Origin: Malacoraja senta
Taxonomy: Eukaryota
Assembly: GCA_038087875.1 (NCBI GenBank)
Contig: CM075992.1
Coordinates: 12,402,001-12,466,000 of the forward strand
Direction of reading: 5' to 3'
Length of the DNA stretch: 64,000 bases
This document shows positions 8,191-53,968 of this stretch, piece by piece. The notes below the pieces were generated by a model, which did not search any database, was not told the DNA's origin, and worked only from the letters and a program-made list of their open reading frames with translations. Numbering within the stretch: the stretch's first letter is position 1; each line of letters begins with the position of its first letter. The translations under genes and the position numbers were made by a program.

Positions 8191-8267
8191 TTCCGGTGGA
8201 TGGAAGATTCCGGAGACTGTCGTTCCAGTGAATCACTGCTCCGGGGAGAGACCAGGCTGGTTAAACG
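8191..8267 (+). CDS. D8C module 1 exon B
   Basis: tttcag|T...AACG|gtaggg, 77 nt, phase 2-1: SSGGWKIPETVVPVNHCSGERPGWLNG, matching GG..PE.....C....P.WLNG. Confidence 0.9.
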
Positions 8268-9489
8268 GTAGGGTCAGAGTTTACAACAGATGGTCTCAGT
8301 TATTGTCGGGGAGGGTCAGACTGACGACCCAGATCTCTCCAGAGGGCCCCTCGCACGGACATGGAACCCAAACTCCCTGAGAGGTTCCCCCACAGTCACT
8401 CAGACCGCGCTCCGGCCCTGGATCCTCACGGAATGCGGTGGGGAAGCTCCAGCTTCCTGGAGTTTCCCGGCAGTGGGGCTACGGATCCCATCCGCTCGTG
8501 GTCTTTTTTTTTAAATTTCAAAATAGACCTTATTCATGTAATAAATATATACAATACATGAACCGTGGAAAAAGATCATCCGACATTCTCGGAGGCTATA
8601 CATACATTCAATACAGTTTCCCCAAATCACAATTTTACCCCACACCCTTGCCAATCATGCGGCCCACTGGCGTGGAATCCCTTCCCTTATTTTGTGGGGC
8701 ATCTCCACCGCACCCTGCCCCAATTGTCCAGCAGCCAAAGGACCCAAGACTGTGGCCCTCCCCCACCGAGCCTTGGCGTTGGCTGCACCAAGCTTCAGTG
8801 CGTCCCTCAGCACGTCCTCCTGCAGTCTGCAGCGGGCCAGTCGGCAATATTCCCCGACGGACATCTCGCTCCGCTGGGTGTTCAACAACGCTCGGGCAGA
8901 CCAAAAAGCAACTTTCACCGAGTTGATGACCTTCCAGCATCATTCGATGTCAGTCTCTGAATGTGTCCCTGGGAACAGTCCGTAAATCACAGAGTCCTCT
9001 GTGACGGAGCTGTTCAGAATAAACCGTGACAGGGACCCTTGCAGACCTCTCCAGACTCCCTTTGCGAATCCACACTCTACAAAGAGGGGGGCAACCATCT
9101 CCTCTCCATAGCAGCCGTCCCGAGGGCAGCGTGCGCTGGCAGTGAGGTTCCGACGGTGCAGGAAGGATCTGACTGGGAGGGCTCCCCTCACCGCCAGCCA
9201 AGCCAGGTCTTGGTGCTTGTTGGTGAGTTCTGGCGATGAGGCATTTTGCCAGACAAGCTGGGCAGTCTGCTCTGGGAACCACGCCACCGGATCCATCGAG
9301 TCCTTTCCGTGCAGTGCCTGCAGGACATTCCGTGCTGACCACTGCCCAATGGACATGTGGTCAAAAGTGTTGGTCCGGAAGAACCTTTCCACAAACGACA
9401 GATGGTGCGGCAATGTCCAGCTGACTGGCACATTGCGTGGCATCTGCGCCAGGCCCATCCTAAGCAACACCAGGGACAGGTAGAACCTC

Positions 9490-9604
9490 TTTCGGACCGA
9501 AACGTTGCCTATTTCCTTCGCTCCATAGATGCTGCTGGACCCACTGAGTTTCTCCAGCATTTTTGTGTACCATTGATTTTCCAGCATCTGCAGTTCCTTC
9601 TTAA
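9490..9604 (+). mobile_element. Short Penelope-like terminal fragment inserted in Tx1 copy 1
   Basis: Flanked by a 14-bp duplication ACAGGTAGAACCTC (9476-9489 and 9605-9618); absent from Tx1 copies 2 and 3; similar sequence at ~62270-62500 and 63555-63650. Confidence 0.65.
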
Positions 9605-10532
9605 ACAGGTAGAACCTCAGCAGGTAGTGACACTTGGTGCCCACGTGCCTTGGCTCTACGTTCTGCCTGATGCAGCCCCACACAAATGTGGGTATCAGTG
9701 TGAGGGTGACATTGGGCACGCTTTTACCCCCTTTGTCTGCTGACTTGTACATTGTGGCCCGTTGCACCCGGTCCATCCTCGACCCCCAGATAAACTGGAA
9801 GACAGCCCGGGTGTTTCTGTGGCGTTGGAAGGAGGGACAGGCCACACTTGCGCCAAGTACAGCAGCCCCGCGAGAACCTCACACCTGATGACCAAATTTT
9901 CCCCTTTATGGAGAGGGAGCGTTGCTTCCACATCTACAGCTACTTCCCCACCTTGGCTATCCGCTCTCGCCAATTCTTGTCTCACGCCTCAGCCTCCCCG
10001 AACCAGATCCCCAGCACCTTCAAGAAGTCAGGCTTGATGGTGAAGGGGACAGAAGATTGGTTGGGCCCGTTGCCAAAGAGCATGGCCTCGCTCTTCCTGT
10101 GGTTCCCCCCTGGCTCCCGTGGCCGACTCAAACTGGTCGCAGATGCTGATCAATCTGCGGACCGACCCTGGATCCGAGCAGAAGGTGGCGACATCATCCA
10201 TGTACAGGGAGGTTTTGACCTGAGTGCCCCCACTGCCTGGCAATGTCACTCCTCTTATGCTCGCGTCCTTCCTGATGGACTCAGCAATAGGTTCAATACG
10301 ACAGATGAACAAGACAGGGGAGAGAGGACAACCCTGCCTGACTCCAGACCTGATGACGAAGCTGTCTGATTCCCACCCATTGATTTGGACCACACTACCG
10401 ATATCTCTCTACAGGTGGAGAGCATTTGGATCCAATTTCTGATTCCCTCCCCAAAGCCCATTTTGGAGAGCACGTCCCTCATGTACGTGTGCGATATCCT
10501 GTCGTTGGCCTTCTCCTGGTCCAAGCTGACTA

Positions 10533-11490
10533 ACATAGAAACATAGAAACATACAAACTATGTTCAGGAGGAGGCCATTCGGCCCTTCAAGCCAGCACCG
10601 CCATTCATTGTGATCATGGCAGATCGTCCCCAATCAATAACCCGTGCCTGCCTTCTCCCCATATCCCTTGATTCCACTAGCCCCGAGAGCTCTATCTAAC
10701 TCTCTCTAAAATCCATCCAGTGATTTGGCCTCCACAGCCCTCAGTGGCAGGGAATTCCAGAAATTCACAACTATCTGTTTTGATTCTCACCTCAGTCTTA
10801 AATGACCTCCCCTTTATTCTAAGACTGTGGCCCCTGATTCTGGACTCGCCCCACATTGGGAACATTTTTCCTGCATCTAGCTTGTCCAGTCCTTTTATAA
10901 TTTTACATGTTTCTATAAGAACCCCGCTCATCCTTCTAAACTCCAGTGAATACAAGCCTAGTCTTTTCAATCTTTCCTCATATGACAGTCCCGCCATCCC
11001 AGGGATCAATCTTGTGAACCTAAGCTGCACTGCCTCAATCACAAGGATGTCCTACCTGCACGCCAACTTTCAGTGACTGGTGTACAAGGACACCCAGGTT
11101 TCGCTGTACCTCCCACTTACCTAACGTAACCCCATTGAGAAAATAATCTGCCCCCTTGTTTTTGCCGCCAAAGTTGATAACCTCACATTTATCTATATTA
11201 TACTGCATCTGCCACGCATCTGCCCACTCACTCAACCTGTCCAGGTCACCCTGCAACCTCCTAATATCCTCTTCTTAGTTCACAATGCCACCCAGCTTTG
11301 TGTCATCCTCAAACTTGCTAGTGTTGCTCCTAATTCCCTCTTCCAAACCATTAATATATATGGTAAACAGTTGCGGCCCCAACACCGAGCCTTGCGGCAC
11401 TCCACTCGCCCCTGACTGCCATTCTGAAAAGGACCCGATCACTCCTCCTCTTTTCTTCCAGTCGGCCAACCAATTTTCTATCTACGTCAA
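10533..11490 (-). mobile_element. CR1 3' fragment inserted in Tx1 copy 1
   Basis: SGVPQGSVLGP, KFEDDTKL, LGLYSLEFRR; (ATAGAAAC)n tail; same insertion point in copy 2, absent in copy 3. Confidence 0.85.
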
Positions 11491-13440
11491 CACCAGGCTA
11501 GGCAGGCATCCACCCATCTGTCCTGCACATAGGCAATGGTATCTCTCAGCAGCGGCAGGCTATCTGAGATTTTCTTGCCAGGTACAGCACAGGTTTGGTC
11601 CGGGTGGATCAGCCGTCCCAGAGCAGACTTGACCCGGTTGGCGATGGCCTTAGACAGGATCTTATAATCTACATTCAACAATGTGATGGGTCTCCATTTC
11701 CTTATATCCTTCATCTCCCCCTTCTGCTTGTAGATTAGGGTGATGCTGCCCTTCCTCATCGAGTCTGACATGCTGCCTGCTAGAAGCATGTCGTTGTACA
11801 CTTCCAGCAGGTCCGGGACCACCCAGTCCCACAGAGCCGTATACAACTCGGACGGTAATCCATTGCTTCCGGGAGTTTTGCTCGAGTCAATGGAACGAAT
11901 GGAGCCAGTCAGCTCCTCTAGGGTCAGTGGTTGGTCCAGACTCTCCCGCTTGCTGTCCTCAAAGACCTCCGTGATAGAGGACAGGAAGTTCTGGGAGGCA
12001 GTGCTGTCTGTGGCCTCTCTGTCATGCAAATCTGTATAAAAGGATTTACAGATCCTCAGTATATCCATCTGCAAGGATGTTACCGAGCCGTCCTCCTCCC
12101 TAAGGCTGTTCATCACAGAGCTCCCCCTATGAACCTTATGGAAGAAGAAACGTGAGCACGTCTCATCCTGCTCCACATGGCGGACCCTGGATCGGAAGAT
12201 GATCTTGGAGGATTCAGAGGTAAAGAGCCGAGCTTGCCGGTCCCTCACCTCTCTAAGTTCCTCCCTCACATCCACCCCTCTCGACTGCAGAAGGAGCAGT
12301 TGCTGCAAATCTGTCTAGAGTTGGCACAATTCCCTCTGATTCTGTCTTGCTCTCTGAACCCCTTTAACTATGAATAACCTCGATGTTCTCCTTGGTTGCT
12401 TCCCACCAGAGTGTCGGGGAGTCAAAAAGGGGCCTCACCGTTCTCCAACATGCGTAGTCCCTCTTTAGCTCCTGAATGTTCTCTGGGGTAAACAGCTTCA
12501 CATTTAACTTCCACGTCCCTCTGCCTGCCTTCCGGTCCTCCTATAGGTGACAGGAAGCCTGAAGGAGGCAGTGGTCAGAGAAGAACTCCAGCGTGACTGA
12601 ACCTTCTGATCTCGACCAGGTGAACCGCGACTGGGACCCACCTTCAGGGTTGCTGAAGGCGTCTTGCAGCTTTGCATCTTTTACCGTCTCCATCAGGAGC
12701 TTGGACATGCTGTCCAGTCTGTTATCGGCACTGCCAGATCGTCCAGCCGCATCAATGATGCAGTTGAAGTCACCGGCCAGAACGAGCTGCCGGGACAAGG
12801 CCAGCAGCGGTGGGAGCGGCTGGAGAACGGTCAGCCACTCGCTCCGCTTGGGTGAGGCGTACACATTAATCAGCCGGAGTGGAGAGCCACTGTACATTAC
12901 ATCCACCACGCTGTCCTGCTCCAGGTCAGAGCCGGAGCAGTTTCAGTGGAGGAGCAGCTTCCAGGGAGCTGGGCCCGTCTCAGGACACCCACAGTTCAGC
13001 AACGAGGTGGAGAAATTAAATACACACAACATTTAGCACAAATGTGCTTATGATTTGTGAAAGTAGTGTTTGTGATGTGTCGTGGCTAAAATTATTGCAA
13101 TCTTGTGACATTTCCGATGAGGCTGAACTATATATTATATAATTAGTCGTCATACATCACAGAAATGGGAGCAGCCCATGTCCGCCATGATGTCCCATCT
13201 GCACTACTAATTCGGCCCGTGACCCTCTAAACCTTTCATGTCCGCTCATCACCAGCTGTCAGCACCCATCGGGGGGGGGGGGGGCGGGAGCTTGTGTTTC
13301 CAGTCCAGACCTCGGCACCCTAGGGTGTCAGCACCAGGAGCAGGGGCTGGTGTGGGGAGTGTGGGTGGGGAGGGTGAAGCAGCAGCTCACCGCCGACTGA
13401 GGCAGGTCAGACCCAACCGTGGCTTGTGATCACTGCCTAA

Positions 13441-14093: not shown

Positions 14094-14258
14094 GTCGCCA
14101 TCCCAGCGTGAGGGACGGGGAGGTGACCAGGACAGTCTGTTTCACCAAGGGTGAAAATCTCTGTGAGAAACATCAGGAGATCAGGGTGAAAAACTGCACC
14201 GGTTACTTTGTGTATCAGCTGTGGCCGTTACGCCACAATCACGCTGTGTATTGTACAG
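14094..14258 (+). CDS. D8C module 1 exon C
   Basis: ttccag|GT...ACAG|gtaggt, 165 nt, phase 1-1: GRHPSVRDGEVTRTVCFTKGENLCEKHQEIRVKNCTGYFVYQLWPLRHNHAVYCT. Confidence 0.92.
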
Positions 14259-14897: not shown

Positions 14898-15375
14898 TGA
14901 AAAAGTTCACTTAGAAAGATAGACAAAGTACAAATTCTTAAGACCATACAAAGCTTTAATTTAACGTCTGACGGGTGTGGACCTAGAGACACAGAGGCAA
15001 CAGTTTCACGTCTGAATCTCCAGCAGCACACACACAGAAATACCAGAAAACGCGAATTTATATACGTACAAATATAAAACCAATTGCATGATGTAATGTA
15101 CAAAAACCATCATCCACCTCCAAATATGGAGTTGTTTTTCACTCTTTGCCAAAAGCCAGTCACCCCAATGGCATCCTCTGGGCCCCGTCTTATCTGATTA
15201 ACCTCTTCAACTTACATTAAAAAAACCTTGTAAGAGAGCTGTGAACTATTCAACTTAAAAGAAAAAAAAAACTGGCATGATAGGAGTTGTCCAAATCCCA
15301 TCATGCATTACAATTGGCCTTTTACAACAGGAAAGCTTAAATATGACAACAATCAATTAATAACTAACTCTTTCA
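14898..15375 (-). repeat. ERV 3' LTR with adjacent polypurine tract
   Basis: TGAAAAAG...CTTTCA, near-identical to 26122-26578; followed by TTCCTTCCTTTTT (AAAAAGGAAGGAA on the minus strand). Confidence 0.92.
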
Positions 15376-15412
15376 TTCCTTCCTTTTTATCAGAAACTGA
15401 TAACAATTACAG

Positions 15413-16575
15413 TCATTGGTTAGTACATAATAGAGGCTTCAGACATTTCAGTACATAGATTAATATAATGATCAGCAGTACAATAGATCCATAATGTATT
15501 ATCAATCCCCATATTCCTCCAAACATACTAAATGGCCACCATTCTACACCTTTATTAAAGTTATGCATTTCTTCCCCTACCTCTGTAATCTTCTTTATTT
15601 CTGCAGTAATATGTGCTGCTAAATCTGTAATGTTAGAAGATTCATCAGGGATGTAAGTGCAGCATTCACACCCTATAATACCACAAGTACCCCCTATTAT
15701 CCTATAGGGATATACGACAAAGTGCATCCATTTCAGCCATAATGGATGAAAGGGCCTTTTACTTGTAGGTAAAGATGTCCACCATTTAATTAAACAATTT
15801 CTCCAATCTAGGGGACATATTAATCAATTCCCGTGATAGACAGGCTGTCCCATAGAGTGGGAAAGCAATCATCCAGAAATGCTCTGACTCTGATATACTT
15901 CACTTAGCCCTCATCGGGAATATACAATTCAGTTTAGATGTTACACAGTTCTCACGTGAGGGACAACAAAGGCCAAATAACAACATCCCCTTCAGTTGTA
16001 GGTTGACCTAATCAACCTTTCCCAGTTCTTCTCATCCCCAGGTACATACCAGGTAACCATAGATATGCCCAAAATCCACATACAAAATACGTCCCATTTA
16101 TTGGAGTCAGCGGCCATTAGCACTAACCTTGGTGCAGGTGCTGTTCCTCAAGTATACTCCGTTGCTTCTTCTGTCACAATAACCGGTGGTATTAACTGGG
16201 CTCTGGGGCAATTCACTAATTTAAGCCATTGTATTTCCCAAACCTGGTCTAATTTACCATCCATCCTGTCTTAAAAGAGGCCACATACCATTCTTTAAAT
16301 ATGGGTCCTTGACTTTGCCATTCTGAAGGCACCCATTAGTTGCTTTGTTATTGCGAAAACAGTAAACAGTAAAGGCCAGAATCTCAGTAAGGTTAAGTGG
16401 TATTGTTACGAGGGGTATTCCTTCTCCACCATTATATGGGATGTGCGTACACAACCAGCATACATTTATTATTACGAAGGGCAAATTCAAAACTCATAAA
16501 CAAAAACAGATTATTTCCCCAAGTCCAGTCCATATGGGCCAACCCCAGAATATAAAAGAGGGTCAATAGCCCCAT
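15413..16575 (-). pseudogene. env: ERV env remnant (gamma-type SU/TM)
   Basis: SU CWLC (CxxC) at ~16460; TM GGTCGIIGCECCTYIPD (CX6CC) followed by hydrophobic IVLLIIILIYVL; frameshifts and stops. Confidence 0.85.
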
Positions 16576-17159
16576 TGTCCTTTCTTGGTTCTCCGAACTG
16601 TTTAAAGTCAATCAGATGAATCCAACGCGGTGATCTTCAATCTTCACAGCAGTTTATGTTGTTGATACCACTTGGTACAGTTCTGTTCAACACAGTTTTA
16701 ATTCCTTCCGTCCCAATGCCGCATCAGTATGTAGTCTGACAGTATGAACTCGTCCCTGTTTTCAACTGGTAGTGGTCTCTGCGCTTCTTGTACCTTAGAA
16801 TGCAGACCTGGCAAGGCATGGGTTAATTGCTGTGTATAATAATTAGTTAATCACTGAGGGCCTGTAGGTGAAACTTCCACACTTGAGTCGCACCACCAGT
16901 GGGTACGTAGCCTGTGGTCACCCTCAGTTCATAGCATCCTTCCCACAGCTCGCAGTCACCCAGCCCTGCGTCACCTGCAAATCTGCCAATGCTACCATCA
17001 CCATCACATTGCATTACATCGGCATACTCGGTTTCTCTCAGATCTGATGGCTATCAATGTCCCAAGATAGGTGAACAATAGCGACATGTCCATCGCAATC
17101 TATCCTAGAAAGGGATTTCTTAAAAGAAATAAGTTAACTATTTATCTTTTAGGCACCAT

Positions 17160-18760: not shown

Positions 18761-18923
18761 CGTTGAGGAATTACGTTAAGACCCCGTCCAGCCGCACACA
18801 CGTCAATCTTTCAAAGCAGCGGAGTGACAATCACAGACGATAATTACTGAAGTATGATAGTAAGATGCATAAAGACTTAGAACTACCAGCTTGATCCTTT
18901 TATGAGGGTGGGAGCGGAGGGCA

Positions 18924-26120: not shown

Positions 26121-26121
26121 A

Positions 26122-28666: not shown

Positions 28667-28807
28667 ACTCCGCACTCGGTGACCCGTGTGTGACCCCCAC
28701 CGTCCTGGATCAGCCCTGGAGGAGCACGTATTGTTCCCACACTGAGTCAGCGGTGGGACAACGATGGGTGATAGAAATCTTGCAGTGGGATGGTACAGAT
28801 TTAACAG
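28667..28807 (+). pseudogene. D8C module 2 exon A, 1-nt deletion
   Basis: 141 nt; GAG T-C AGC versus GAG TGC AGC in module 1; splice sites intact. Confidence 0.8.
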
Positions 28808-29128: not shown

Positions 29129-29205
29129 TTCCGGTAGATGGAAGATTCCGGAGACTGTCGTTCTGAGGGATCACTGCTCCGGGGAGAGACCAGGCTGGTT
29201 AAACG
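29129..29205 (+). CDS. D8C module 2 exon B
   Basis: 77 nt, ag/gt intact: SGRWKIPETVVLRDHCSGERPGWLN. Confidence 0.85.
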
Positions 29206-29440: not shown

Positions 29441-32400
29441 CATTTATTAAAATCATTTCCAACTTTAGTTAATAAATATATACAATACATGAACCGCAGA
29501 AAGAAATCATCCGACATTCTCGGAGGCTATACGTACATAAAATACAGTTACACCAAATCACAATTTTACCCCACACACTTGCCACTCATGTGGCCCACTT
29601 GTGTGGAATCTCTTCCATTATTTTGAGGGGCGTCTCCACCGCACCCTGCCCCCAGGTCCAGCAGCGGAAGGACCCGAGACTGTGGTCCTCCCCCACCGAT
29701 CCATGGCATTGGCACCGAGCTTCAGTGCATCCTTCAGCACGTACTCCTGCAGTCTGCAGCGGGCCAGTCGGCAACATTCCCCGACGGACACCTCGCTCCG
29801 CTGGGAGGTCACAATGCTCGGGCAGACCAAAGAGTGTCTTTCACCGAGTTGATGACCTTCCAGCATCATTCGATGTCAGTCTCTGAATGTGTCCCTGGGA
29901 ACAGTCCATAAATCACAGTATCCTCTGTGACGGAGCTGTTCGGAATATACCTTGACAGGACCCTTGCAGACTTCCCACCCGAGTTGCGGGGTTGAAGAGC
30001 ACCTGGAGCGGGGCTTTGCATCACCGCCCCGTACGGCTTGGAATGGCCGCGGGAGTTTGCGAATGCAAAGAGGTGGGGAACCGTCTCCTCTCCATAGCAG
30101 CCGTCCCGAGGGCAGCGTGCGCTGGTAGTGAAGTTTCAACGGTGCAGGCAGGATCTGACTGGGAGGGCTCCCTCACCGCCAGCCAAGCCAGGTCTTGGTG
30201 CTTGTTGGTGAGTTCTGGCGATGAGGCATTTTGCCAGAGAAGCTGGGCAGTCTGCTCTGGGAACCACGCCACAGGATCCATGGAGTCATCTCCCTGCAGT
30301 GCCTGCAGGACGTTCCATGTTGTCCACTGCCCAATGGACATGTGGTCAAAGGTGTTGGTCCAGAAGAACCTTTCCACGTGTGACAGATGGTGCGGCAATG
30401 TCCAGCTGACTGACACATTGCGTGGCATCTGCGCCAGGCCCATCCTTCGCAACACCGGGGACAGGTAGAACCTCAGCAGGTAGTGACACTTGGTGCCCAC
30501 GTGCCTTGGCTCTATGCTATGCCTGATGCAGCAACACACAATGGTGGCCATCAGGGTGAGGGCGAAGTTGGGCACGCTTTTACCCCCGTTGTCTTCTGAC
30601 TTGTGCATTGTTGCCCATCGCACCCGGTCTATCCTTGGCCCCCAGATGAACTGGAAGATGGCCCGGGTGATCCCTGTGACGTAGGAAGGAGGGAGGGACA
30701 GGCCACACTTGTGCCAAGTACAGCAGTGCAAATGGTACCTCACACATGATGCCAGTTGCCAAAGAGCATGGCCTCGCTCTTCCTGTGGTTCCCCCTGGCT
30801 CCTGTGGCTGACTCAAACTGGTCGCAGATGCTGATCAATCTGCGGACCGACCCTGGGTCCGAGCAGAAGGTGGCGACATCGTCCATGTACAGGGAGGTTT
30901 TGACCTGAGTGCCCCCACTGCCTGGCAATGTCACTCCTCTTATGCTCGCGTCCTTCCTGATGGACTCAGCAATAGGTTCAATACAACAGATGAACAAGAC
31001 AGGGGAGGGAGGGCAACCCTGCCTGACTCCGGACCTGACGGGGAAGCTGTCTGATTCCCACCCATTGATTTGGACTGCACTACAGATATCGGTGGAGAGC
31101 AGTTGGATCCAATTTCTGATTCCCTCCCCAAAGCCCGTTTCGGAGAGCACGTCCCTCATGTATCTGTGCGATATCCTGTCATTGGCCTACTCCTGGTCCA
31201 AGCTGAATAACATAGAAACATAGAAACATAGAAAATAGGTTCAGGAGGAGGTCATTTGGCCCTTCAAGCCAGCACCGCCATTCATTGTGATCATGGCTGA
31301 TCGTCCCCAATCAATAACCCGTGCCTCCCCATCTCCCTTGATTCCACTAGCCCCTAGAGCTCTATCTAACTCAAATCCATCCAGTGATTTCGCCTCCACA
31401 TTCCTCTGTGGCAGGGAATTCCACAAATTCATAACTATCTGGTTGTTTCTCACCTCAGTCTTAAATGACCTCCCCTTTATTCTAAGACTGTGGCCCCTGG
31501 TTCTGGACTCGCCCAACATTGGGAATATTTTTCCTGCATCTAACTTGTCCAGTCCTTTTATAATTTTATATGTTTCTATAAGAATCCCCTTCATCCTTCT
31601 AAACTCCAGTGAATACCAGCCTAGTCTTTTCAATCTTTACTCATATGACAGTCCCGCCATCCCAGGGATCAATCTCGTGAACATACGCTGCACTGCCTCA
31701 ATGACAAGGATGTCCTTCCTCATATTAGGAGACCAAAACTGGATACAATATTCCAGATGTGGTCTCACCAGAGCCGTATACAACTGCAGAAGAACCTCTT
31801 TACTCCTATACGGAAATCCTCTTGTTATGAAGGCCAACATTCCATTAGCTTTCTTCACTGCCTCCTGTACCTGCACGGCAACTTTCAGTGACCTGTGTAC
31901 AAGGACACCCAGGTCTCGCTGTACCTCGCCCTTACCTAACCGAACCCCATTGAGATAATAATCTTCCCCCTTGTTTTTGGCGCCAAAGTGGATAACCTCA
32001 CATTTATCTATATTATACTGCAACTGCCACGCATCTGCCCACTCACAGAACCTGTCCAGGTCACCCTGCAACCTCCTAACATCTTCTTCACAGTTCACAC
32101 TGCCACCCAGCTTTGTGTCATCCGCAAACTTGCTAGTGTTGCTCCTATTTCCCTCTTCCAAATCATTAATATATATGGTAAACAGTTGCGGCCCCAACAC
32201 CGAGCCTTGTGGCACTCCACTCGCCACTGCCTGCCATTCTGAAAAGGACCCGTCCACTCCTCATCTTTGCTTCCAGTCGGCCAACCAATTTTCTATCCAC
32301 GTCAACACCAGGGTAGGCAGGAATCCACCCGTCTGTCCTGCACATAGGCAATGGTATCTCTCAGCACTGCCAGGCTGTCTGAGATTTCCCTGCCAGGTAC

Positions 32401-33720
32401 AGCACAGGTGGATCAGCCGTCCCAGAGCAGACTTGACCCGGTTGGCGATGGCCTTAGGCAGGATCTTACAATCAACATTCAACAATGTGATGGGTCTCCA
32501 ATCCCTTATATCCTTCATCTTCCCCTTCTGCTTGTAGATTAGGGTGATGCTGCCCTTCCTCATGGAGTCTGACATGCTGCCTGCTAGAAGCATGTCGTTG
32601 TATACTTCCAGCAGGTCCGGGCCCACCAGTCCCACAGAGCCGGATACAACTCGGCCGGTAAGCCATTGCTTCCGGGAGTTTTACTCGAGTCAATGGAACG
32701 AATGGGCCCAGTCAGCTCCTCTGGGGTCAGTGGTTGGTCCAGACTCTCCCGCTTGCTGTCCTCAAAGACCTCCGTGATAGAGCACAGGAAGTTCTGGGAG
32801 GCGGTGCTGTCAATATATATTACAATATTTATTACATGTCATTTGAACCTCAGTGAGGCTCACACGAAACTCAGTTTCCACAGCCATACAAACATAGACA
32901 ATTCCTACAAGACATACATACAAGCTGTCTGTGTCCTTTCTGTCATGCAAATCCGTATAAAAGGATTTGCAGATCCTCAGCATGTCCGTCTGCAAGGATG
33001 TTACCGAGCCGTCCTCCTCCCTAAGGCTGTTCATCACAGAGCTCCCCCTGTGAACCTTATGGAAGAAGAAGCATGAGCACGTCTCATCCTGCACCACGTG
33101 ACGGACCCATCGGAAGATGAGCTTGGAGGATTCAGAGGTAAAGAATCGAGCTTGCCGGACCTTCACCTCTCTAAGTTCCTCCCTCACATCCACCCCTCTC
33201 GACTGCAGAAGGAGCAGTTGCTGCAAATCTGTCTGGAGGGGCTGCACCGTTCTCCAACATGCCTAGTCCCTCTTTCGCTTCTCAATGTTCTCTGGGGTCA
33301 ACAGCTTAACATTTCACTTCCACGTCCCTCTGTCTGACATCCGGTCATCCTGTAAGTGACAGAAAGCCTGAAGGAGGCAGTGGTCAGAGAAGAACACCAG
33401 CGTGACTGAACCGTCCGATCTCGACCAGGTGAACCGCGACTGGGACCCGCCTGCAGGGTTGCTGAAGGCGTCGTGCAGCTTTGCATCTTTTACCGTCTCC
33501 ATCAGGAACTTGGACATGTTGTCCTGTCTATTGTCGGCACTGCCGGATCGTCCAGCCGTATCAACGATGCAGTTGAAGTCACCGGCCAGAACGAGCTGCC
33601 GGGACTTGGCCAGCAGCGGTGGGATCTACTGGAGAACGGCCAGGCGCTCGCTCCGCATGGGTGAGGCGTACACATTAATCAGCCAGAGTGGAGAGCCATG
33701 GTACATTACAATCACCACGT
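29441..33720 (-). mobile_element. Tx1/L1 LINE copy 2 with nested CR1 (~31207-32310)
   Basis: Paralogous to 8504-12910, with the same 5' truncation point and the same CR1 insertion. Confidence 0.88.
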
Positions 33721-34333: not shown

Positions 34334-34498
34334 GTCCCCATCCCAGCGTGGGAGACGGGGAGGTGACCAGGACAGTCTGTTTCACCAAGGGCAGATACAT
34401 CTGCTACTGGAACCGGGAGATCAGGGTGAAGAACTGCACCGGTTACTTTGTGTATCAGCTGTGGCCGTCACCCCACAAGGAGGCTGTGTATTGTACAG
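34334..34498 (+). CDS. D8C module 2 exon C
   Basis: 165 nt: GPHPSVGDGEVTRTVCFTKGRYICYWNREIRVKNCTGYFVYQLWPSPHKEAVYCT. Confidence 0.88.
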
Positions 34499-38810: not shown

Positions 38811-38952
38811 ACTCCGCACTCGGTGACCCGTGTGTGACCCCCACCGTCCTGGATCAGCCCTGGAGGAGCACGGATTGTTCCCACACTGTGTGCAGCGGTG
38901 GGACAACGATGGGTGATGGAAATCTTGCAGTGGGATGGTACAGATTTAACAG
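38811..38952 (+). CDS. D8C module 3 exon A
   Basis: 142 nt open: DSALGDPCVTPTVLDQPWRSTDCSHTVCSGGTTMGDGNLAVGWYRFN. Confidence 0.9.
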
Positions 38953-39274: not shown

Positions 39275-39351
39275 TTTCGGTAGATGGAAGATTCCGGAGA
39301 CTTTCGTTCCAGGGTATCACTGCTCCGGGAAGAGACCAGGCTGGTTAGCCG
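39275..39351 (+). CDS. D8C module 3 exon B
   Basis: 77 nt: FGRWKIPETFVPGYHCSGKRPGWLA. Confidence 0.88.
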
Positions 39352-39587: not shown

Positions 39588-42500
39588 TTTTTTTAAATTT
39601 CAAAATAGACTTTATTCAGGTAATAAATTTAAACAATACATAAACCGTGGAAAAAAATCATCCGACATTCTCGGAGGATATACATACAGACAACACAGTT
39701 TCCCCAAATCACAATTTTACCCCACACCATTGCCACTGGCGTGGAATCCCTTCCATTATTTTGAGGGGCATCACCACCACACCCTGCGCCCCATGTCCAG
39801 CAGCAGAAGGACCTTAGACTGTGGCCCTCCCCCACCGATCCTTGGCGCTGGCTGCACCGAGCTTCAGTGCGTCCCTCAGCACGTAGTCCTGCAGTCTGCA
39901 GCGGGCCAGTCGGCAACATTTCCTGACGGACATCTCGCTCCACTGGGTAGTCAACAATGCTCGGGCAGACCAAAGAGCGTCTTTCGCCGAGTTAATGACC
40001 TTCCAGCATCATTCGATGTCAGTCTCTGAATGTGTCCCTGGGAACAGTCCGTAAATCACAGTATCCTCTGTGATGGAGCTGTTCGGAATAAACCTTGACA
40101 GGGACCCTTGCAGACCTCGACAGACTCTATTTGCGAATCCACACTCCGCGAAGAGGTGGGGAACCATCTCCTCTCCATAGCAGCCGTCCCGAGGGCAGCG
40201 TGCGCTGGTAGTGAGGTTCTGACGGTGCAGGAAGGATCTGACTGGGAGGGCTCCCCTCACCGCCTGCCAAGCCAGGTCTTGGTGCTTGTTGGTGAGTTCT
40301 GGCGATGAGGCATTTTGCCAGACAAGCTGGGCAGTCTGCTCTGGGAACCATGCCACAGGATCCATGGAGTCATTTCCCTGCAGTGTCTGCAGTTCGTTCC
40401 ATGCTGACCACTGCCCAATGGACATGTGGTCAAAGGTGTTGGTCCGGAAGAACCTTTCTACGAACGACAGATGGGTGGCAATGTTCAGCTGACTGGCATA
40501 TTGCGTGGCATCTGCGCCAGGCCCATCCTTCGCAACACCAGGGACAGGTAGAACCTCAGCAGTTAGTGACACTTGGTGCCCACGTGCCTTGGCCATCAGG
40601 GTGAGGGCAACATTGGGCACACTTTTACCCACTTTGTCATCTGCCTTGTGCATTGTGGCCCATCGCACCCGGTGTATCCTTGACCCCCAGATGAACAGGA
40701 AGACAGCCCGGGTGATCCCCGTGGCGTAGGAGGGAGGGACAGGCCACACTTGCGCCAACTACAGCAGACCCGACAGCACCTCACATCTGATGACTAAATT
40801 TTCCACCGTAATGGAGAGGGAGCGTTGCTTCCACATCTCCAGTTTCTTCCCCACTATCCGCTTGGCTATCGGCTCCAGCCAATTCATGTCACACGCCTCC
40901 CCCCACCCCCCACCCCCCCAAACCAGATCCCCAGCACCTTCAAGAAGTCAGGCTTGATGGTGAAGGGGACGGAAGATTGGTCGGGCCCGTTGCCAAAGAG
41001 CATGGCCTCGCTTTTCCTGTGGTTCCCCCTGGCGCCCGTGACCGACTCAAACTGGTCGCAGACGCCGATCAATCTGCGGACCGACCCTGGATCCGAGCAG
41101 AAGGTGGCGACATCATCCATGTACAGGGAGGTTTTGACCTGAGTGCCCCCACTGCCTGGCAATGTCACTCCTCTTATGCTCACGTCCTTCCTGATGGACT
41201 CAGCAATAGGTTCAATGCAACAGATGAGCAAGACAGGGGAGAGAGGGCAACCCTGCCTGACTCCAGACCTGACGACAAAGCTGTCTGATTCCCACCCATT
41301 GATTTGGACCACACTACAGATATCGGTGGAGAGCAGTTGGATCCAATTTCTGATTCCCTCCCCAAAGCCAATTTTGGAGAGCACGTCCCTCATGTACATG
41401 TGCGATATCCTGTCGTTGGCCTACTCCTGGTCCAAGCTGACTAGGCAGGCATCCCCCCATCTGTCCTGCACATAGGCAATGGTATCACTCAGCAGCGCCA
41501 GATTTTCCTGCCAGGTACAGCACAGGTACGCACAGGTTGGTCCGGGTGGATCACCTGTCCCAGAGCAGACTTGACCCGGTTGGCGATGGCCTTAGACAGG
41601 ATCTTATAATCAACATTCAACAATGTGATGGGTCTCCAATTCCTTATATCCTTCATCTCCCCCTTCTGCTTGTAGATTAGGGTGATGCTGCCCTTCCTCA
41701 TGGAGTCTGACATGCTGCCGGCTAGAAGCATGTCGTTGTACACTTCCAGCAGGTCCGGGACAACCAGTCCCACAGAGCCGTATACAACTTGGCCGGTAAG
41801 CCATCGCTTCCGGGAGTTTTGCTCGAGTTAAAGGAATGGATGGAGCCAGTCAGCTCCTCTAGGGTCAGTGGTTGGTCCAGACTCTCCCACTTGCTGTGCT
41901 CCAAGACCTCCGTGATAGAGGACAGGAAGTTCTGGGAGGAGATGTTGTCTGTGGCCTTTCTGTCGCACAAATCCGTATAAAAGGATTTGCAGATCCTCAG
42001 CAAAGGTTGAAAGATTCTTTATTAGTCACAAACACCATATGTGTAGTGAAATGCGTATCGCCAATGCAGCACATAAAAAAAGAATACAGACATAACAACA
42101 ATAAAGAAATGTAAACATAAAAAACATCCCCCCACAAAGGTTCCCATTATGAGGGAAGGCACAATGTCCAGTCCCCATCCCATGTCCACCCATAGTCGGG
42201 CCTATTTTGGCCTCTGCAGTCGCCTTTACGGAGGCCCGATGTTCCAGGCCCTTCAGGATGATGGTATTCCGGTGTCGGGTGAATCCTCACAGTGGCATGG
42301 GAAAACCTGAACGGCCGCTACCTTACCGGAGACCGCGGCTTCCGAAGCCGACAGGCCGCGCTGGATGGAGCTCCATGACTGGCGTTCAGCGCCACCGCCC
42401 GCAGCTGGCCGCTCCACAGACCACAGCTCCGCAATGTTTTTATCGGCGGTCTCAGCTCACCAGAGTTTCAGCGCGGTGACCCGGGCAAGGCATCACCCGC

Positions 42501-43270
42501 TCCGCAAAGCCGAGTATCTGGCCGGTCCCGACAGGACACGCTGCTCCAGGCCCGCTGGTAGGCCGCGAGGACGGGTTGAAATTGCTGCTCGGAGAAAGGC
42601 CGCCTCTCCGACCAGGTAGGGACCCTGAAAAGCAGTTCCCCCCTTCCCCCCCCCCCCACATAAAAAAGACCAAAGCTCCAGAAACAAAACACTATAACTG
42701 ACTAAAAATAAATAAAGAGGTGAAAAAAAACGGACGGCTGTAGGCTGGGCAGCCATACCATGCAGGACGGCGCCCCCTATCTGTCTGCAAGGATGTTACC
42801 AAGCCGTCCTCCTCCCTAAGGCTGTTCATCACAGAGCTCCCCCTGTGAACCTTATGGAAGAAGAAGCATGAGCACGTCTCATCTTGCTCCACGTGGCGGA
42901 ACCTGGATTGGAGGATGATCTTGGACAATTCAGAGGTAAAGAGCCGAGCTTGACGGCCCTTCAACCCTTCAAGTTGCTCTCTCACATCCACCCCTCTCGA
43001 CTGCAGAAGGAGCAGTTGCTGCAAATCTGTCTGGAGTTGACACAATTCCCTCTGACTCTGTCTTGCTCTCTTTAAATATGAAGAACCTCTTGATGTTCTC
43101 CTTGGTTGCTTTCCACAAGAGTGTCGGGGAGTCAAACAGGGGCTTCACCGTTCTCCAACATGCGTAGTCCCTCTTTAGCTGCTCAATGTTCTCTGGGGTC
43201 AACAGCTTCACATTTCACTTCCACGTCCCTCTGCCTGCCTTCCGATCCTCCTAAAGGTGACAGGAAGCCT
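39588..43270 (-). mobile_element. Tx1/L1 LINE copy 3 (no CR1 insert; unclassified ~780-bp insert at ~42001-42780; 5' end deleted)
   Basis: Paralogous to copies 1 and 2; continuous CAAGCTGACTAGGCAGG across the CR1 site. Confidence 0.85.
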
Positions 43271-43387
43271 GAATACACACAACATTTAGCACAAATGTAC
43301 TTATAATGTGTGAATGAAGTGTTTGTGATGTGTCGTGGTTAAAATTATTGCAATCTAGTGACATTTCCGATGAGGCTAAACTATAGC

Positions 43388-47016: not shown

Positions 47017-47158
47017 ACTCCGCACTCGGTGACCCGTGTGTGACCCCCACCGTCCTGGATCAGCCCTGGAGGAGCACGGATTGTTCCCACACTGAGTGCA
47101 GCGATGGGACAACGATGGGTGATGGAAATCTTGCAGTGGGATGGTACAGATTTAACAG
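47017..47158 (+). CDS. D8C module 4 exon A
   Basis: 142 nt open: DSALGDPCVTPTVLDQPWRSTDCSHTECSDGTTMGDGNLAVGWYRFN. Confidence 0.9.
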
Positions 47159-47276: not shown

Positions 47277-50200
47277 AATAGACAATAGACAATAGGTGCA
47301 GGAGTAGGCCATTTGGCCCTACGAGCCAGCACCGCTCGAATGGCTGATCATCCACAATCAATACCCCGTTCCTGCCTTTTCCCTATATCCCTTGACTCCT
47401 CTATCTAAGAGCTCTGTCTAGTTCTCTCTTGAAAGGATCCAGAGAACCAGCCTCCACCGCCCCTGGGCAGAGAATTCCACCGACTCACACCTCTCTGTGT
47501 GAAAATGTTTTTCCTCATCTCCGTTCTGAATGGCTTACCCCTTATTCTTAAACTGCGGCCCCTGGTTCTGGACTGCTTCAACATCGGGAACATGTTCCCT
47601 GCTCCAGCGTATCCAGACCCTTAATAATCTTATATGTTTCAATAAGATACCCTCTCATCCTTTTAAATTCCAGAGTATAAAAGCCCAGCCGCTCCATTCC
47701 ATCACCATATGAAAGTCCCGCAATCCCGGGAATTAACCTGGTGAACCTACGCTGCACTCCCTCAATAGCAAGAATGTCCTTCCTCAAATTAGGAGACCAA
47801 AACTGCACACAATATTCCAGGTGTGGTCTTACTAGAGCCCTGTACAACGACAGAAGAACCTCTTTGCTCCTACACTCAATTCCTCTTGTTATGAAGACCA
47901 ACATGCCATTTGCTTTCTTCACTGCCTGCTGTACCTGCATGCTTACTTTCATTGACTGATGAACAAGGACCCCCAGATCCTGTTGTACTTCCCTTTTCCC
48001 GACTTGACTCCATTTAAATAATAATCTGCCTTCCTGTTTTTGCCACCAAAGTGGATAACCTCACACTTATTCACATGAAACTGCTCTGCCATGCATCTGC
48101 CCACTTACCCAACCTGTCCAAGTCACTCTGCATCCTCATAGCATCCTCCTCACAGTTCACACTGCCACCAAGCTTTGTGACATATGCAAATTTGCTAATG
48201 TTACTTTTAATCCCTTCGTCCAAATCATTGATATATATTGTAAATAGCTGCGGTCCCAGCACCGAGCCTTGCGGCACCCCACTAGTCACTGCCTGCCATT
48301 CTGAAAGGGACCCGTTAATCCCTACACTTTGTTTCCTGTCTGCCAACCAATTTTCTATCCATGTCAGCACCCAATACAAATAACCAATCCCCAATACCAA
48401 TTTTGCCCACTAACCTCCTATGTGGCACCTTATCAAATGCTTTCTGAAAGTCCAGGTAAACTACATCCACTGGCTCTCAATTGTCCATTTTCCTGGTTAC
48501 ATCCCCAAAATATTCCAGAAGATTAGTTAAGCATGATTTCCACTTCGTAAATCCATGCTGAATCGGACTGATCCTGCTACTGGTATCCAAATGTGCTGCT
48601 ATTTCATCTTTTATAATTGACTCCAGCATCTTCCCCACCACCGATGTCAGACTAACTGGTCTATAATTCCCTGTTTTCTCTCTCCCGCCTTTCTTAAAGA
48701 GAGGGATAATATTAGCTACCCACCAATCCACAGGAACTGATCCTGAATCTATAGAACATTGGAAAATTATCACCAATGCATCCACGATTTCTAAAGCCAC
48801 TTCCTTAAGTACCCTGGGATGCAGACTATCAGGCCCCTGGGGATTTATCAGCCTTCAGTCCCATCAGTCTATCCAACACCATTTCCTGCCTAATGTGGAT
48901 TTCCTTCAGTTCCTCCTGCACCCAGATCCTCTGGCCACCAATACATCAGGAAGATTGTTTGCGTCCTCCTTAGTGAAGACGGAATCAAAGTACCTGTTCA
49001 ACTCATCTGCCATTTTCTTGTTCCTCATAATAAAGTCACCTTTTTCAGTCTTCAAGGGTCCAGCTTTGAACTTAACTAATTGTTTCCTCGTCACATATCT
49101 ATAGAAGCTTTTACTATCCTTTATATTCTTGGCGAGCTTACCTTCTTATCTCATTATCTCCCCGTATGGCCTTTTAATTATCTTCTGTTGCTCTTTAAAC
49201 GTTGCCCTATCCTCTGGCTTCCTGCTCATTTTTGCTAGGTTATACTTCTTCTCCATTCTTTTTATACTGTCCTTGACTTCCCTGGTCAGCCACGGTCGTC
49301 CCTTACTCCCCTTGGAATCTTTCTTCCTCTTTGAAATGAACTGATCCTGCACCTTCTATATTATTCCCTGAATATACCTGCCATTGTTGCTCCACTGTCA
49401 TCCCTGCAAGGGTATCTTTCTAGTCAACTTTGGCCAGCTCCTCCCTCATGGCTCCATAGTCCCCTTTGTTCAACTGTAATACTGACACCTCCGATTTACC
49501 CTTCTCCCTCTCAAATTGTAGATTAAAACTTATCATATTATGGTCACTACCTCCTAGTGGCTCCTTTACATCAAGTTCCTTTATCAAATCCGGTTCATTA
49601 TACAACACTAAATCCAGAATTGCCTTCTCCCTGGTTGGCTCCAGTACAAGCTACTCTAAGAATCCATCAGAGAGGCACTCCACAGACTCCCTTTCTTGGG
49701 GTCCAGTACCAACCTGATTTTCCCAGTCTACCTGCATGTTGAAATCCCTGTAGCATTACCTTCACGACATGCCAATTTTAACTCATGATTCAACTTGCAC
49801 CCTATATCCAGGCTACCGTTTGGGGGCCTGTAGGTAACTCCCGTTAAGGTCTTTTTACCCTTATGATTCCTCAGTTCTATCCATACTGAATTGACATCTC
49901 CTGATTCTATGTCACCCCTCGAAAGGGACTGAATTTCATTCCTCAACAACAAAGCCACCCCACCCCCTCTGCCCAACTGTCTGTCTTTAAGATAGGACGT
50001 ATACCCTTGAATATTCAGTTCCCAGCGCTGGCCCTCTTGCAGCCATGTCTCTGTAAATCCCACAACATCATACTTGCCAATTTCTAACTGAGCCTTAAGC
50101 TTGTCCACTTAATTTCTTATAAGTTGCACATTCATATACAACACTTTAACTTTGGTATTCACCTCCCCTCTCACCGCTCACAAGTGGCCCTGACCTTACT

Positions 50201-52687
50201 CTATTATCCCTTCTCAAACTTTACTTCCCATTAATTCGGGAGTCTTTTGTAACTTTTCCTGTACTCACTTTCCCTTTAACTCCATCTTTATACTCCCAAT
50301 TTGTCAATCGCTCCACTCCACTATTTAGTTTAAACCCACCCGAGTAGCACTAGCAAACCTGCCTGCCAGAACGTTGGTCCCCCTCCAGTTAAGGTGTAAC
50401 CCGTCCCTTTTGTACAGGTCACCCTTACAGGTCAATTATTAAAGAGGTAATAATGGGGCAATTGGATAGCAGTAAAAGGATTAGTCCAAGTCAACATGGA
50501 TTTATGAAAGGGAGATCATGCTTGACTAATCTTCTGGAAGTTTTTGAGGATGTGACAAGTAAAATGGATGAAAGGGTGCCAGTGGATGTAGTGTATCTAG
50601 ACTTTCAGAAAGCACATGGTATTGGGGGTAGGGTGTTGACATGGATAGAAAATTGGTTGGCAGACCGGAAGCAAAGAGTAGGAGTGAACGGGTCCTTTTC
50701 AGAATGGCAGGCAGTGGCGAGTGGAGTGCCGCAAGGCTCGGTGATGGGGCCGTAACTGTTTACCATATATATTAATGATTTGGAAGAGGGAATTAGGAGC
50801 GACACTAGCAAGTTTGCGGATGACACACAGCTGGGTGGCAGTGTGAACTGTGAAGAGGATGTTAGGAGGTTGCAAGGTGACCTGGACAGGTTGAGTGTGT
50901 GGGCAGATGCGTGGCAGATGCAGTATAATTTAGATAAATGTGAGGTTATCCACTTTGGCGGCAAAAACAAGGGGGCAGATTATTATCTCAATGGGGTTAG
51001 GTTAGGTAAGGGGGAGGTGCAGTGAGACCTGGGCATCCTTGTACACCGGTCACTGAAAGTTGGCTTACAGGTACAGCAGGCAGTGAAGAAAGCTAATGGA
51101 ATGTTGGCCTTCATAACAAGAGGATTTCAGTATAGGAGTAAAGAGGTTCTTCTGCTGTTGTATAGGGCTCTGGTGAGACCACATCTGGAGTATTGTGTAC
51201 AGTTTTTGTCTCCTAATTTGAGGAAGGACATCCTTGTGATTGAGGCAGTGCAGCGTAGGCTCACGAGATTGATCCCTGGGATGGCGGGACTGTCATATGA
51301 GGAAAGATTGAAATGACTAGGCTTGTATTCACTGGAGTTTAGAAGGATGAGGTGATATCTTATAGAAACATATAAAATTATAAAAGGACTGGACAAGCTA
51401 GATGTACCCAATGTTGGGCGAGTCCAGAACCAGGGGCCACCGTCTTAAAATAAAGGGGAGGTCATTTAAGACTGAGAAAAAAAAAATTCTTCCAGAGAGT
51501 TGTGAATTTATGGAATTCCCTGCCACAGAGGGCAGTGGAGGCCAAGTCACTGGATGGGTTTAAGAGAGAGTTAGATAGAGCTCTAGGGTCTAGTGGAGTC
51601 AAGGGATATGGGGAGAAGGCAGGCACGGGTTATTGATAGGGAACGATAAGCCATGATCACAATGAATGGCGGTGCTGGCTCGAAGGGCCGAATGGCCTCC
51701 TCCTGCGCCTTTTTCTATGTTTTCTATGTTTTCTACCCCAGAAGAGACCCCAGTGGTCTATAATGCTAAATCCTTGCTCCCTGCACCAGCCCCTCAGCCA
51801 CACATTCAAATCCCCGATCTCCCTGTTCCTATCCTCACTAGCACAAGGTACTGGATGCAACCCGGAGATAACCACCCTAGAAGTCCTGCGTTTCAGTCTT
51901 CTTCCTAACTTTGTAAACTTGCGTTACAGAACCTCCTTCCACTTCTTCCCAATGTCGTTTGTGCCTACATGCACAACTACTGCCGGATGTTCACCTTCTC
52001 TATCGAGGATCTTCTGAATTCGGTTTGTGACATCTAGCACCCTGGCACCAGGCAGGCAACAGACCAGCCTCACGTCTCAGCTGCTGCGACAGAATCTCCA
52101 GTCCGTACCTCGGACAATGGAGTCACCCACCATTATGGCTTTGCCCGACGTCAGTCAAGTCTCAGTCAAGTCTGTCGCTCGGACTGGAAGCGTTATCCCC
52201 CCCGACAGCTCCCAAGAGGGTGTACATGCTTTCATTAGGCACAGCCGCCTGGGTGTCCTGCACTCCACGGTTACTCCCCTTTCTCACAGTCACACACCTT
52301 CGCTCTTCCTGTATCCTTGGTGAGACAACCACACTATAGGTCCTGTCCAGGAAACTCTCGTTTTCCCGGATGGCCCTGAGGTCATCAAGTTGCTTCGCCA
52401 GTGTCCCAACACGGTCCTTCAGGAGCTGAACCTGGACACACTTGCCACTGTTGTAGCAGAAAGAGGCACCATCAGTGTCCCTGCCCTCCCTCTTACTCAC
52501 CGACTTCCAGCCAATCCTAGATCTCGCTACTCCTGCTCTCCCACCTTCCCGGTAAAGCTTGGATCGGGCTTTTGCCGTGCTTTTAAATCTACTTTCCCTC
52601 TTACTCACCGAAGTCCAGCCAATCCTAGCTCTGGCTGCTCCTGGCTTCTCCTGCTCTCCCATCTTCACAGTAACCACGTACAGGACG
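47277..52687 (-). mobile_element. Near full-length decayed CR1 LINE in intron A-B of module 4
   Basis: ORF1 (GKCVQVQLLKDRV, esterase) and ORF2 EN (GFTETWL, LGGSDH) and RT (YRPVSLTS, SGVPQGSVLGP); (AATAGAC)n tail; empty site in modules 1-3. Confidence 0.88.
50430..51732 (+). mobile_element. Nested opposite-strand CR1 3' fragment
   Basis: QHGFMKGRSCLTNLL, YLDFQKA, KFADDT; (TTTTCTATG)n tail. Confidence 0.85.
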
Positions 52688-52882
52688 TCAATACTGAGAA
52701 TGGGGAGATCCCACATTGTGGAGAGAGAGACCGGGGAAGATGGGAGCGGAGGGAAAACAACATTGGATTCCGGGGAATGTTGAACGGGACGGGGTGCGGT
52801 CAGAATGGCGCTGATTCCGGGTCTTTCTCTGGGTGAACAAACTCCCTCAGTTCAGGGGCTGACTCTCTGATTGTTGTTTCAG

Positions 52883-52959
52883 TTCCGGTGGATGGAAGAT
52901 TCCGGAGACTGGCGTTCTGAGGGATCACTGCTCCGGGGAGAGACCAGGCTGGTTAAACG
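52883..52959 (+). CDS. D8C module 4 exon B
   Basis: 77 nt: SGGWKIPETGVLRDHCSGERPGWLN. Confidence 0.9.
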
Positions 52960-53803
52960 GTAGGGTCAGAGTTTACAACACATGGTCTCAGTTATTGTCC
53001 GGGAGGGTCAGACTGACGACCCAGATCTCTCCAGAGGGCCCCTCGCACGGACATGGAACCCAAACTACCTGAGATGTTCCCCCACAGTCACTCAGACTGC
53101 GCTCCGGCCCTGGATCCTCACGGAGTGCGGTGGGGAAGCTCCAGCTTCCTGGAGTTTCCCGGCAGTGGGGCTACGGATCCCATCCGCCCGCTGTCCCTGC
53201 TCCAGATCAGAGCCGGAGCAGTTTCAGTGGAGGAGCAGCTCCCAGGGAGCTGGGCCCGTCTCAGGACACCCACAGTTCAGCAACGAGGCGGAGAAATTAA
53301 ATACACACAACATTTAGCACCAATGTGCTTATGACGTGTGATTGAAGTGTTCGTGATGTGTTGTGGTTAAAAGTATTGCAATCTAGTGACATTTCCGATG
53401 AGGCTGAACTAAAAAATACATACTGTAATTACTAATAAGTCATATGGCACAGAAATGGGCCTTCGGCCCATGCCGACCATGATGTCTCATCTGAGCTACT
53501 AATTCGGCCTGTGTCTGTCTAAACTATACCTGTTCGCTCATCACCAGCTGTCAGCACCCATCGGAGGGGGGGGGGCTATTGTTTCCAGTCCAGACCCCGG
53601 CACCCTAGGGTGTCAGCACCAGGAGCAGGGGCTGCTGTGGGGAGTGTGGGTGGGGAGGGTGAGGGCAGCAGCTCACCGCTGACTGAGGCAGGTCAGACCC
53701 GACCGTGGCTTGTGATCACTGCCTTACACTGGCTCCACATTCACATTCCCCACCGCACTGTGGCACCGGGTACATTTTACAATGTTTATAATCCTCATTC
53801 CAG

Positions 53804-53968
53804 GTCCCCATCCCAGCGTGGGAGACGGGGAGGTGACCAGGACAGTCTGTTTCACCAAGCATGATAACTTCTGTGAGAAACATCAGGAGATCAGGGTGAA
53901 GAACTGCACCGGTTACTTTGTGTATCAGCTGTGGCCGTCACCCCACAAGGAGACTGTGTATTGTACAG
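53804..53968 (+). CDS. D8C module 4 exon C
   Basis: 165 nt: GPHPSVGDGEVTRTVCFTKHDNFCEKHQEIRVKNCTGYFVYQLWPSPHKETVYCT. Confidence 0.92.

Follow-up and report, generated by a model that had tools for sequence, protein, structure and literature searches.

Region-specific histories in a tandem array of GP2/uromodulin-like domains of Malacoraja senta suggest short-tract exchange between modules

In this work we examine a 64,000-nucleotide (nt) stretch of the genome of the skate Malacoraja senta (GCA_038087875.1, contig CM075992.1, positions 12,402,001 to 12,466,000 of the forward strand; hereafter the window, to which all coordinates refer), which carries four tandem modules, M1 to M4, each encoding a domain related to the D10C domain of GP2 and uromodulin. 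Different regions of the modules follow different trees, sequence near the exons is far more alike than the transposable elements (TEs) that the modules share, and the coding differences are largely replacement changes clustered in four patches. We consider it probable that these patterns reflect germline interlocus gene conversion, limited by insertions and deletions (indels) of TEs, together with selection on the loops.

Module architecture and duplication order

Self-comparison of the window resolves four tandem units of ~10 kb each, and every module comprises exons A, B and C of 142, 77 and 165 nt, bounded by canonical splice sites. Each module starts and ends in phase 1, so that its exon C can be joined in frame to exon A of the next. 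The initial annotation began at 8191; exon A of M1 begins upstream of this, at 7728.

7728..7869, + strand: M1 exon A, 142 nt; in-frame alternative acceptor 6 nt upstream
8191..8267, + strand: M1 exon B, 77 nt
14094..14258, + strand: M1 exon C, 165 nt; Pfam D8C_UMOD positions 34-87
28667..28807, + strand: M2 exon A, 141 nt; one base short at 28747/28748 (frameshift, probably an assembly error)
29129..29205, + strand: M2 exon B; codons 59-61 (LRD, 29163-29171) as in M4, the surrounding stretch otherwise as in M3
34334..34498, + strand: M2 exon C
38811..38952, + strand: M3 exon A
39275..39351, + strand: M3 exon B; residues 63-73 identical in the Amblyraja domain P0007
44369..44533, + strand: M3 exon C
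47017..47158, + strand: M4 exon A; a private insertion of ~5.4 kb lies downstream (47277-52680)
52883..52959, + strand: M4 exon B
53804..53968, + strand: M4 exon C, last domain; 3' flank of a terminal type also present in Amblyraja models

The order in which the modules arose is recorded by insertions in intron B-C. M1, M2 and M3 share one insertion of a long interspersed nuclear element (LINE; presumably CR1-like) with a 7-bp target duplication, where M4 has an empty site. Inside this element, M1 and M2 carry a further LINE fragment at one and the same junction, where M3 has an empty site. Both empty sites are spanned by contigs of other organisms, and they confirm the order (((1,2),3),4) that the initial annotation had read from the TEs of this intron.

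8500..12908, - strand: 5'-truncated LINE (RVT_1, zf-RVT) in M1 intron B-C; target duplication 12909-12915; left end approximate
10533..11497, - strand: second LINE fragment nested in the first, M1; common to M1 and M2 only
29442..33717, - strand: shared LINE, M2; nested fragment at 31210-32313; right end approximate
39588..43272, - strand: shared LINE, M3; nested fragment absent, right junction deleted
53189..53195, + strand: empty LINE target site, M4; single copy of the 7-mer

We considered and rejected the possibility that LINEs had inserted independently at the same target: the truncation point is identical in M1 and M2, and five of 31 polarized LINE substitutions (from the 38 of 511 rows listed) are common to all three copies. 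An inverted internal fragment of the same LINE family lies in the M3 intron (43387-44055; 88-92% identity to all three copies, no nested insert), and the use of an inverted LINE copy as outgroup did not resolve the order among M1-M3 (4, 3 and 3 sites). Between the nested fragments of M1 (10533-11497) and M2 (31210-32313), 41 of 61 differences are transversions, unlike in the surrounding LINE.

Divergence and discordance among modules

A TE shared through duplication diverges only after that duplication. Outside CpG context, shared TE and exon-proximal intron differ at 109/2014 versus 19/1022 sites for M1-M2, 107/2148 versus 13/1044 for M1-M3 and 95/1584 versus 8/1024 for M2-M3, corresponding to 5.0-6.0% in the TEs against 1.9, 1.3 and 0.8% in the introns (P=1e-5 to 3e-13); the nested insert differs at 50/884 sites (5.7%) between M1 and M2. 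Overall, the shared TEs are 3-8x more diverged than the exon flanks, and divergence is highest mid-intron and low on either side. The identity of the closest pair also changes from block to block, being M1-M2 upstream, M1-M3 before exon A and M2-M3 from intron A-B on, where the latter pair shows 0/556 non-CpG differences. Counted as distances, M1-M2 and M2-M3 stand at 8 and 21 upstream and at 8 and 0 from the A-B intron to the region before exon C (interaction P=0.0003), a reversal that region-specific rates could not produce. Region-specific trees combined with homogenization after duplication, as observed here, are expected of interlocus gene conversion.

Within the exons, all of the loop motifs from which the initial annotation had argued for a conflict with the TE tree were located where it had placed them, and the conflict is real. 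It had been overstated, as its nine motifs reduce to five characters: SGGW/GRW is a single base (M1 8198), as is SGGTT (7815), SVGDG/SVRDG is one codon and WPSPHKE/WPL one patch. CEKHQ, cited as evidence for grouping M1 with M4, is uninformative, since a single base separates it from the CENHQ of M3, and it is M2 that deviates from the rest. The resulting 13|24 split comprises three multi-base patches (codons 59-61, 79 and 118-122), and the 14|23 split two single-base characters (codons 29 and 50). Among 2131 four-way columns there are 20 two-versus-two sites, 11 of which favor 13|24, seven 14|23 and two the TE split 12|34, with six of the 20 lying in CpG context. This count leaves out 8, 7 and 5 columns at alignment ends and 186 ambiguous ones; four 12|34 sites in the dropped start of the first block are an artefact of an end offset in the alignment.

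The discordance extends beyond the exons into the introns. At the 1611 non-CpG intron sites we observe four for 14|23, one for 13|24 and none for 12|34, where parallel change predicts 0.12-0.69 per class; the excess of the four 14|23 sites over the 0.16-0.69 expected for that split is significant (P=2e-5 to 0.005). By the approximately unbiased (AU) test the TE topology can be rejected, with P=0.022 for the full set of aligned sites and 0.041 and 0.020 for its two halves; the Shimodaira-Hasegawa test applied to the full set does not reject it (0.069). Amino-acid states polarized with 17 other skate domains are likewise distributed in incompatible groups, with L59-R60 and K121-E122 derived in M2 and M4, and R79 and L95 in M1 and M3. 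Of the remaining derived states, P10 occurs in all four modules, T32 in M2, M3 and M4, R50 in M2 and M3, and the E.HQ loop in M1, M3 and M4; a 14-bp deletion is shared by M1 and M4. A compatibility test on the amino acids of 21 skate domains reached significance with three window sizes out of four (P=0.0002-0.012), and at 17 of the 32 variable residues at least two states are also present in other skates.

At least one loop, in M2, stands apart from the other modules.

34390..34416, + strand: M2 loop GRYICYWNR; 17/27 nt differ from M4; nearest match Leucoraja paralogues

Across codons 58-127, M2 and M4 differ at only 1/183 nt outside this loop, which has M4 identity on both of its flanks. Leucoraja (little-skate) domains differ from the M2 loop by two residues, and in M1, M3 and M4 the loop is closest to those of the other two and of Amblyraja P0007. 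Judged from these similarities, the M2 loop appears to have come from, or to have been retained from, a lineage outside the four modules. The proposal that loops recombine among the modules would need amending for at least this loop.

It had also been suggested that a disabled module could serve as a donor. Conversion from pseudogene donors is employed by somatically diversified receptors such as chicken immunoglobulins. In the window, a disabled donor is not supported. The M2 frameshift (28747/28748) is one of four single-G losses private to M2 within 600 bp, the other three being intronic, and no private 1-nt indels occur in the same blocks of M1, M3 or M4 (P=0.005). Contigs of other organisms have G insertions relative to M2 at such sites, although the frameshift site is not among the 12 of 47 indel rows listed. 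Once the missing base is allowed for, no module contains an in-frame stop. The frameshift is probably an assembly error.

Domain identity and variable patches

Exon C alone matches Pfam D8C_UMOD (PF23283) at E=1e-4 to 2e-4, which is below the cut-off because the match is partial, and the homologues P0003 and P0004 pass the cut-off, with D8C as the sole Pfam domain in both. Sequence matches in the PDB are to GP2 and UMOD only, the close homologue P0012 matching the GP2 D10C domain (PDB 7p6r) at E=3e-25. The evidence for the fold comes from this homologue and not from a spliced domain of the window itself: an AlphaFold2 model of P0012 (mean predicted local distance difference test score 57.7) retrieved only GP2/UMOD chains at E<=1e-3, with a Foldseek E of 1e-8. 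Of 14 candidates, 13 are homologues, all of them skate or ray proteins with 1-5 domains each and several with an acidic stalk; RefSeq models (e.g. XP_032879434.1, XP_055514970.1) show 57-85% identity over exon C.

Rather than the ten cysteines in five disulfides of the canonical domain, the window domains have eight cysteines, six canonical and a new C22/C27 pair. Aligning P0012 with GP2 on the published disulfide map (PMC8930769) indicates that C1-C8, C4-C10 and C5-C7 are retained and that C2-C9 and C3-C6 are gone, both partners of each lost pair being missing in the window domains. The FimH glycan sequons are absent, with T9 at the equivalent of GP2 N65 and Q114 at that of UMOD N275, and the window domains have sequons only at N46 and N106. 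No Pfam match to a ZP or EGF domain was found in the full-length homologues P0003 and P0004; the gene itself extends beyond the window end.

In total, 32 of 127 residues vary among the modules, and four patches, delimited once the data had been inspected, contain 24 of these. All 45 four-fold sites are invariant, and just two codons differ by silent change alone. The lost GP2 cysteine positions 34, 57, 95 and 121 (pairs C2-C9 and C3-C6) fall one in each patch, and because each patch holds one position of a lost pair, the patches are pairwise neighbors on the fold. In uromodulin, the light-chain epitope is a region involving C5-C7 and C3-C6 (PMC8930769), and this region corresponds to the most variable loop of the window domains. 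The four patches together probably form a binding surface, and it is reasonable to postulate diversifying selection on an exposed face. The ligand may be microbial, with the proteins acting as mucosal microbe-binding decoys or receptors; both the single binding face and the microbial ligand are suggested in part by the result for zebrafish omcin (PMC11415648).

With respect to the gene as a whole, the four units most likely belong, as successive domains, to a single gene with its leader upstream of the window; no signal-peptide exon could be identified within the window (best BLOSUM score 24). The modules would also splice in frame to downstream exons encoding a stalk (DPASVPT), which match Amblyraja P0004 at the level of sequence. 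A separate gene for each module was rejected, since no stalk or leader exon could be matched between modules. The best explanation appears to be a gene of a skate/ray family whose product has an acidic Pro/Thr/Glu stalk bearing four or more D10C-fold domains in tandem. Two runs presumed to be RNA gave no splice evidence, as their contigs crossed introns and were DNA-like.

Exon A of every module has tandem in-frame acceptors 6 nt apart (7722-7727 and equivalents), and the Leucoraja isoforms P0003 and P0019 differ by two residues that correspond to this spacing. In the Amblyraja models P0004 (X2) and P0015 (X1), the second domains have the same exon C and different A and B parts, which would reflect hybrid splicing across modules or, alternatively, homogenization of exon C in two of them. 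The Amblyraja models P0006 and P0007 contain translated intron that matches flanks in the window, and P0007 combines an M1/M3-type coding haplotype with an M4-type terminal 3' flank.

Mechanism and alternatives

Tandem duplication would have made the modules and left the TE order described above, after which germline conversion between modules, and probably also with other family members, may have repeatedly copied short exon-centered tracts. Such tracts would end in the TE-filled mid-intron, where indels break homology, so that the framework and exon flanks would stay near-identical as loop variants move between modules, with diversifying selection building up variation in the four neighboring patches. 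Short-tract exchange, as proposed in the initial annotation, is accordingly the best explanation in our estimation, with the amendment that it would cover the exon-proximal introns as well and that its main effect would be homogenization of the framework. That one tree does not fit is borne out by the AU test, and the tests of site order and of Sawyer-type runs did not reach significance.

Several observations weigh against conversion with selection on the loops. The informative sites show no significant clustering in a runs test (P=0.17, or 0.41 without CpG), the best Sawyer-type runs (P=0.026 and 0.029, uncorrected among six pairs) are not significant, and on introns alone the TE tree is not rejected (AU 0.066). 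The split at 8210, used below, was picked after inspection of the data. The compatibility test loses significance on the 17 other skate domains without the window modules (P=0.2-0.74). Of the 31 polarized LINE changes, 21 are private to M2 (from the 38 of 511 rows listed), and this excess of private change in the M2 copy could make ages judged from the TEs too high; TE copies might also be faster-evolving, or subject to conversion by further copies of their family. The ratio of nonsynonymous to synonymous differences (pN/pS) is 1.1-3.6, with P<0.05, uncorrected, in two of six pairs (three of six with kappa 3), and single-base indels affect M2 and the stalk exons as assembled.

An alternative which would dispense with short-tract conversion is repeated unequal crossing-over with breakpoints inside modules, yielding chimeric modules. 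It would account for a single broad switch at 8210, left of which the AU test prefers 14|23 (0.94) and right of which 13|24 (0.98), and for the variation from 1 to 5 domains among relatives, and the alternating 1,3/2,4 pattern is that expected from duplication of a two-module unit. As a full account we nevertheless deem it unlikely, as two patches show, by inspection, double switches within ~120 nt (the M2 loop, 92-100, and codons 59-61), the TE block between exons B and C has a third tree, and divergence is maximal mid-intron with low values on both sides. Unequal crossover probably acted as well as conversion; that conversion prevailed, and that selection was positive, is what we infer from the pattern as a whole.

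A single tree overlaid by parallel mutation, through selection on loops, CpG decay and flanks that evolve more slowly than TEs, would be in keeping with the CpG context of six of the 20 informative sites, with the single-base nature of the 14|23 exon characters and with the order and run tests. We hold it to be highly improbable: M2 and M4 have the same codons throughout their shared multi-base patches, including the silent third position of codon 79, the four non-CpG intron sites for 14|23 exceed what parallel change would yield, and the closest pair switches between intron blocks. There is similarly little chance that assembly or polishing mixed reads of different modules or haplotypes and thereby created false homogeneity and mosaics. 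The single-base indels of M2 and the stalk exons do betray an imperfect consensus, but the private TE insertions of each module anchor long reads, many of the variant states recur in Amblyraja and Leucoraja proteins, and contigs of other skates that differ by 2-4% from the M2 flanks contain the empty LINE site.

Relation to known systems

Gene conversion with diversifying selection in tandem arrays is already a textbook mechanism, and such exchange is an established route by which mucosal defense proteins vary. Interlocus conversion between close tandem copies is known for protocadherin variable exons (as cited in PMC1885805) and for Arabidopsis halleri HMA4 (bioRxiv 10.1101/2025.10.29.685298), and mosaic divergence with silent sites more alike than long introns is common to these systems and the window. 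The conversion model described for HMA4 predicts a gradient with synonymous divergence below that of introns, which is a gradient of the kind we observe. In contrast to both systems, the skate array encodes domains within a single protein, and its loops show more non-synonymous than silent change.

The D10C decoy module of GP2 and uromodulin (PMC8930769; PDB 7p6r) belongs to the same sequence family and fold, with C1, C4, C5, C7, C8 and C10 kept. The skate domains differ from it in the loss of C2-C9 and C3-C6, the new C22/C27 pair, the lack of a sequon at the FimH glycan positions, the arrangement as tandem copies on a stalk, and the absence of ZP or EGF domains from full-length homologues. 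The teleost omcin genes (PMC11415648) likewise encode several D10C domains per protein, with variable domain number and clustered lineage-specific expansion, and an antibacterial role has been shown for omcin in zebrafish; unlike the skate proteins, omcins carry EGF and ZP modules and a glycosylphosphatidylinositol anchor. A term search of the available text of that paper finds no mention of 'conversion', 'positive selection', 'shark' or 'cartilaginous'. The SRCR array of DMBT1 (PMC4946147), with mucosal bacteria-binding, tandem, copy-variable cysteine-rich domains, is a functional analogue, although its fold is unrelated and the variation described there concerns copy number, not loop exchange. 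The closest relatives remain the RefSeq skate/ray models named 'uromodulin-like', 'GP2-like' and 'mucin-5AC-like', which are of the same family, with the domain-plus-stalk layout and loop variants in common, and which exist as automatic annotation only; our searches located no account of how they evolved or what they do. Our literature searches, whose coverage excluded most subscription papers, returned no paper on a D10C stalk family in cartilaginous fish.

The case is of value in that nested TE insertions date the duplications independently, so that homogenization can be measured in a single haplotype. It draws attention to a family of GP2/uromodulin-like proteins in cartilaginous fish that is unstudied and diversifies fast, with variable patches corresponding to the light-chain-binding loop region of uromodulin, and offers a concrete surface for tests with microbial ligands; it suggests that the D10C fold is employed here in a protein-based manner and not in a glycan-based one. 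Beyond this we would venture, with considerable doubt, that these proteins constitute an undescribed innate receptor or decoy family of skates and rays, in which the D10C scaffold shed two disulfides and so freed four adjacent loops to serve as interchangeable cassettes, taken from a pool that spans the family and predates the species, with germline conversion and possibly hybrid A/B/C splicing generating a binding repertoire. Such splicing between modules would be possible because all phases are compatible and because the two Amblyraja isoform models have a common exon C with different A and B parts.

Other elements in the window

The stalk exons lie downstream of M4.

57990..58101, + strand: stalk exon (DPASVPT...), 112 nt; out of frame as assembled
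59118..59692, + strand: stalk exon with 18-bp EPQETA repeats; several 1-nt indels in short homopolymers
61075..61170, + strand: stalk exon; 97% identity to Amblyraja P0004 328-359
63288..63383, + strand: stalk exon; 91% identity to Amblyraja P0004 360-391

Within 57990-59692 a stalk exon has been duplicated and one copy has grown to ~27 units of 18 bp; in the assembly neither copy is in frame, chiefly owing to 1-nt indels in homopolymers.

The M1-M2 intron holds an 11.7-kb insert (14901-26578) flanked by 476-bp direct repeats that are ~98% identical, with a minus-strand tyrosine recombinase open reading frame at 19297-20211 and a reverse transcriptase/RNase H-like one nearby; we take it to be a DIRS-like retrotransposon. 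Inside it, a LINE fragment lies between the arms of a perfect 51-bp inverted repeat (17791/18951). Upstream of M1, the minus-strand translation of bases 241-545 presumably represents a helitron-like fragment, and positions 695-3330 contain a ~1.1-kb tandem duplication with long G-rich low-complexity tracts.

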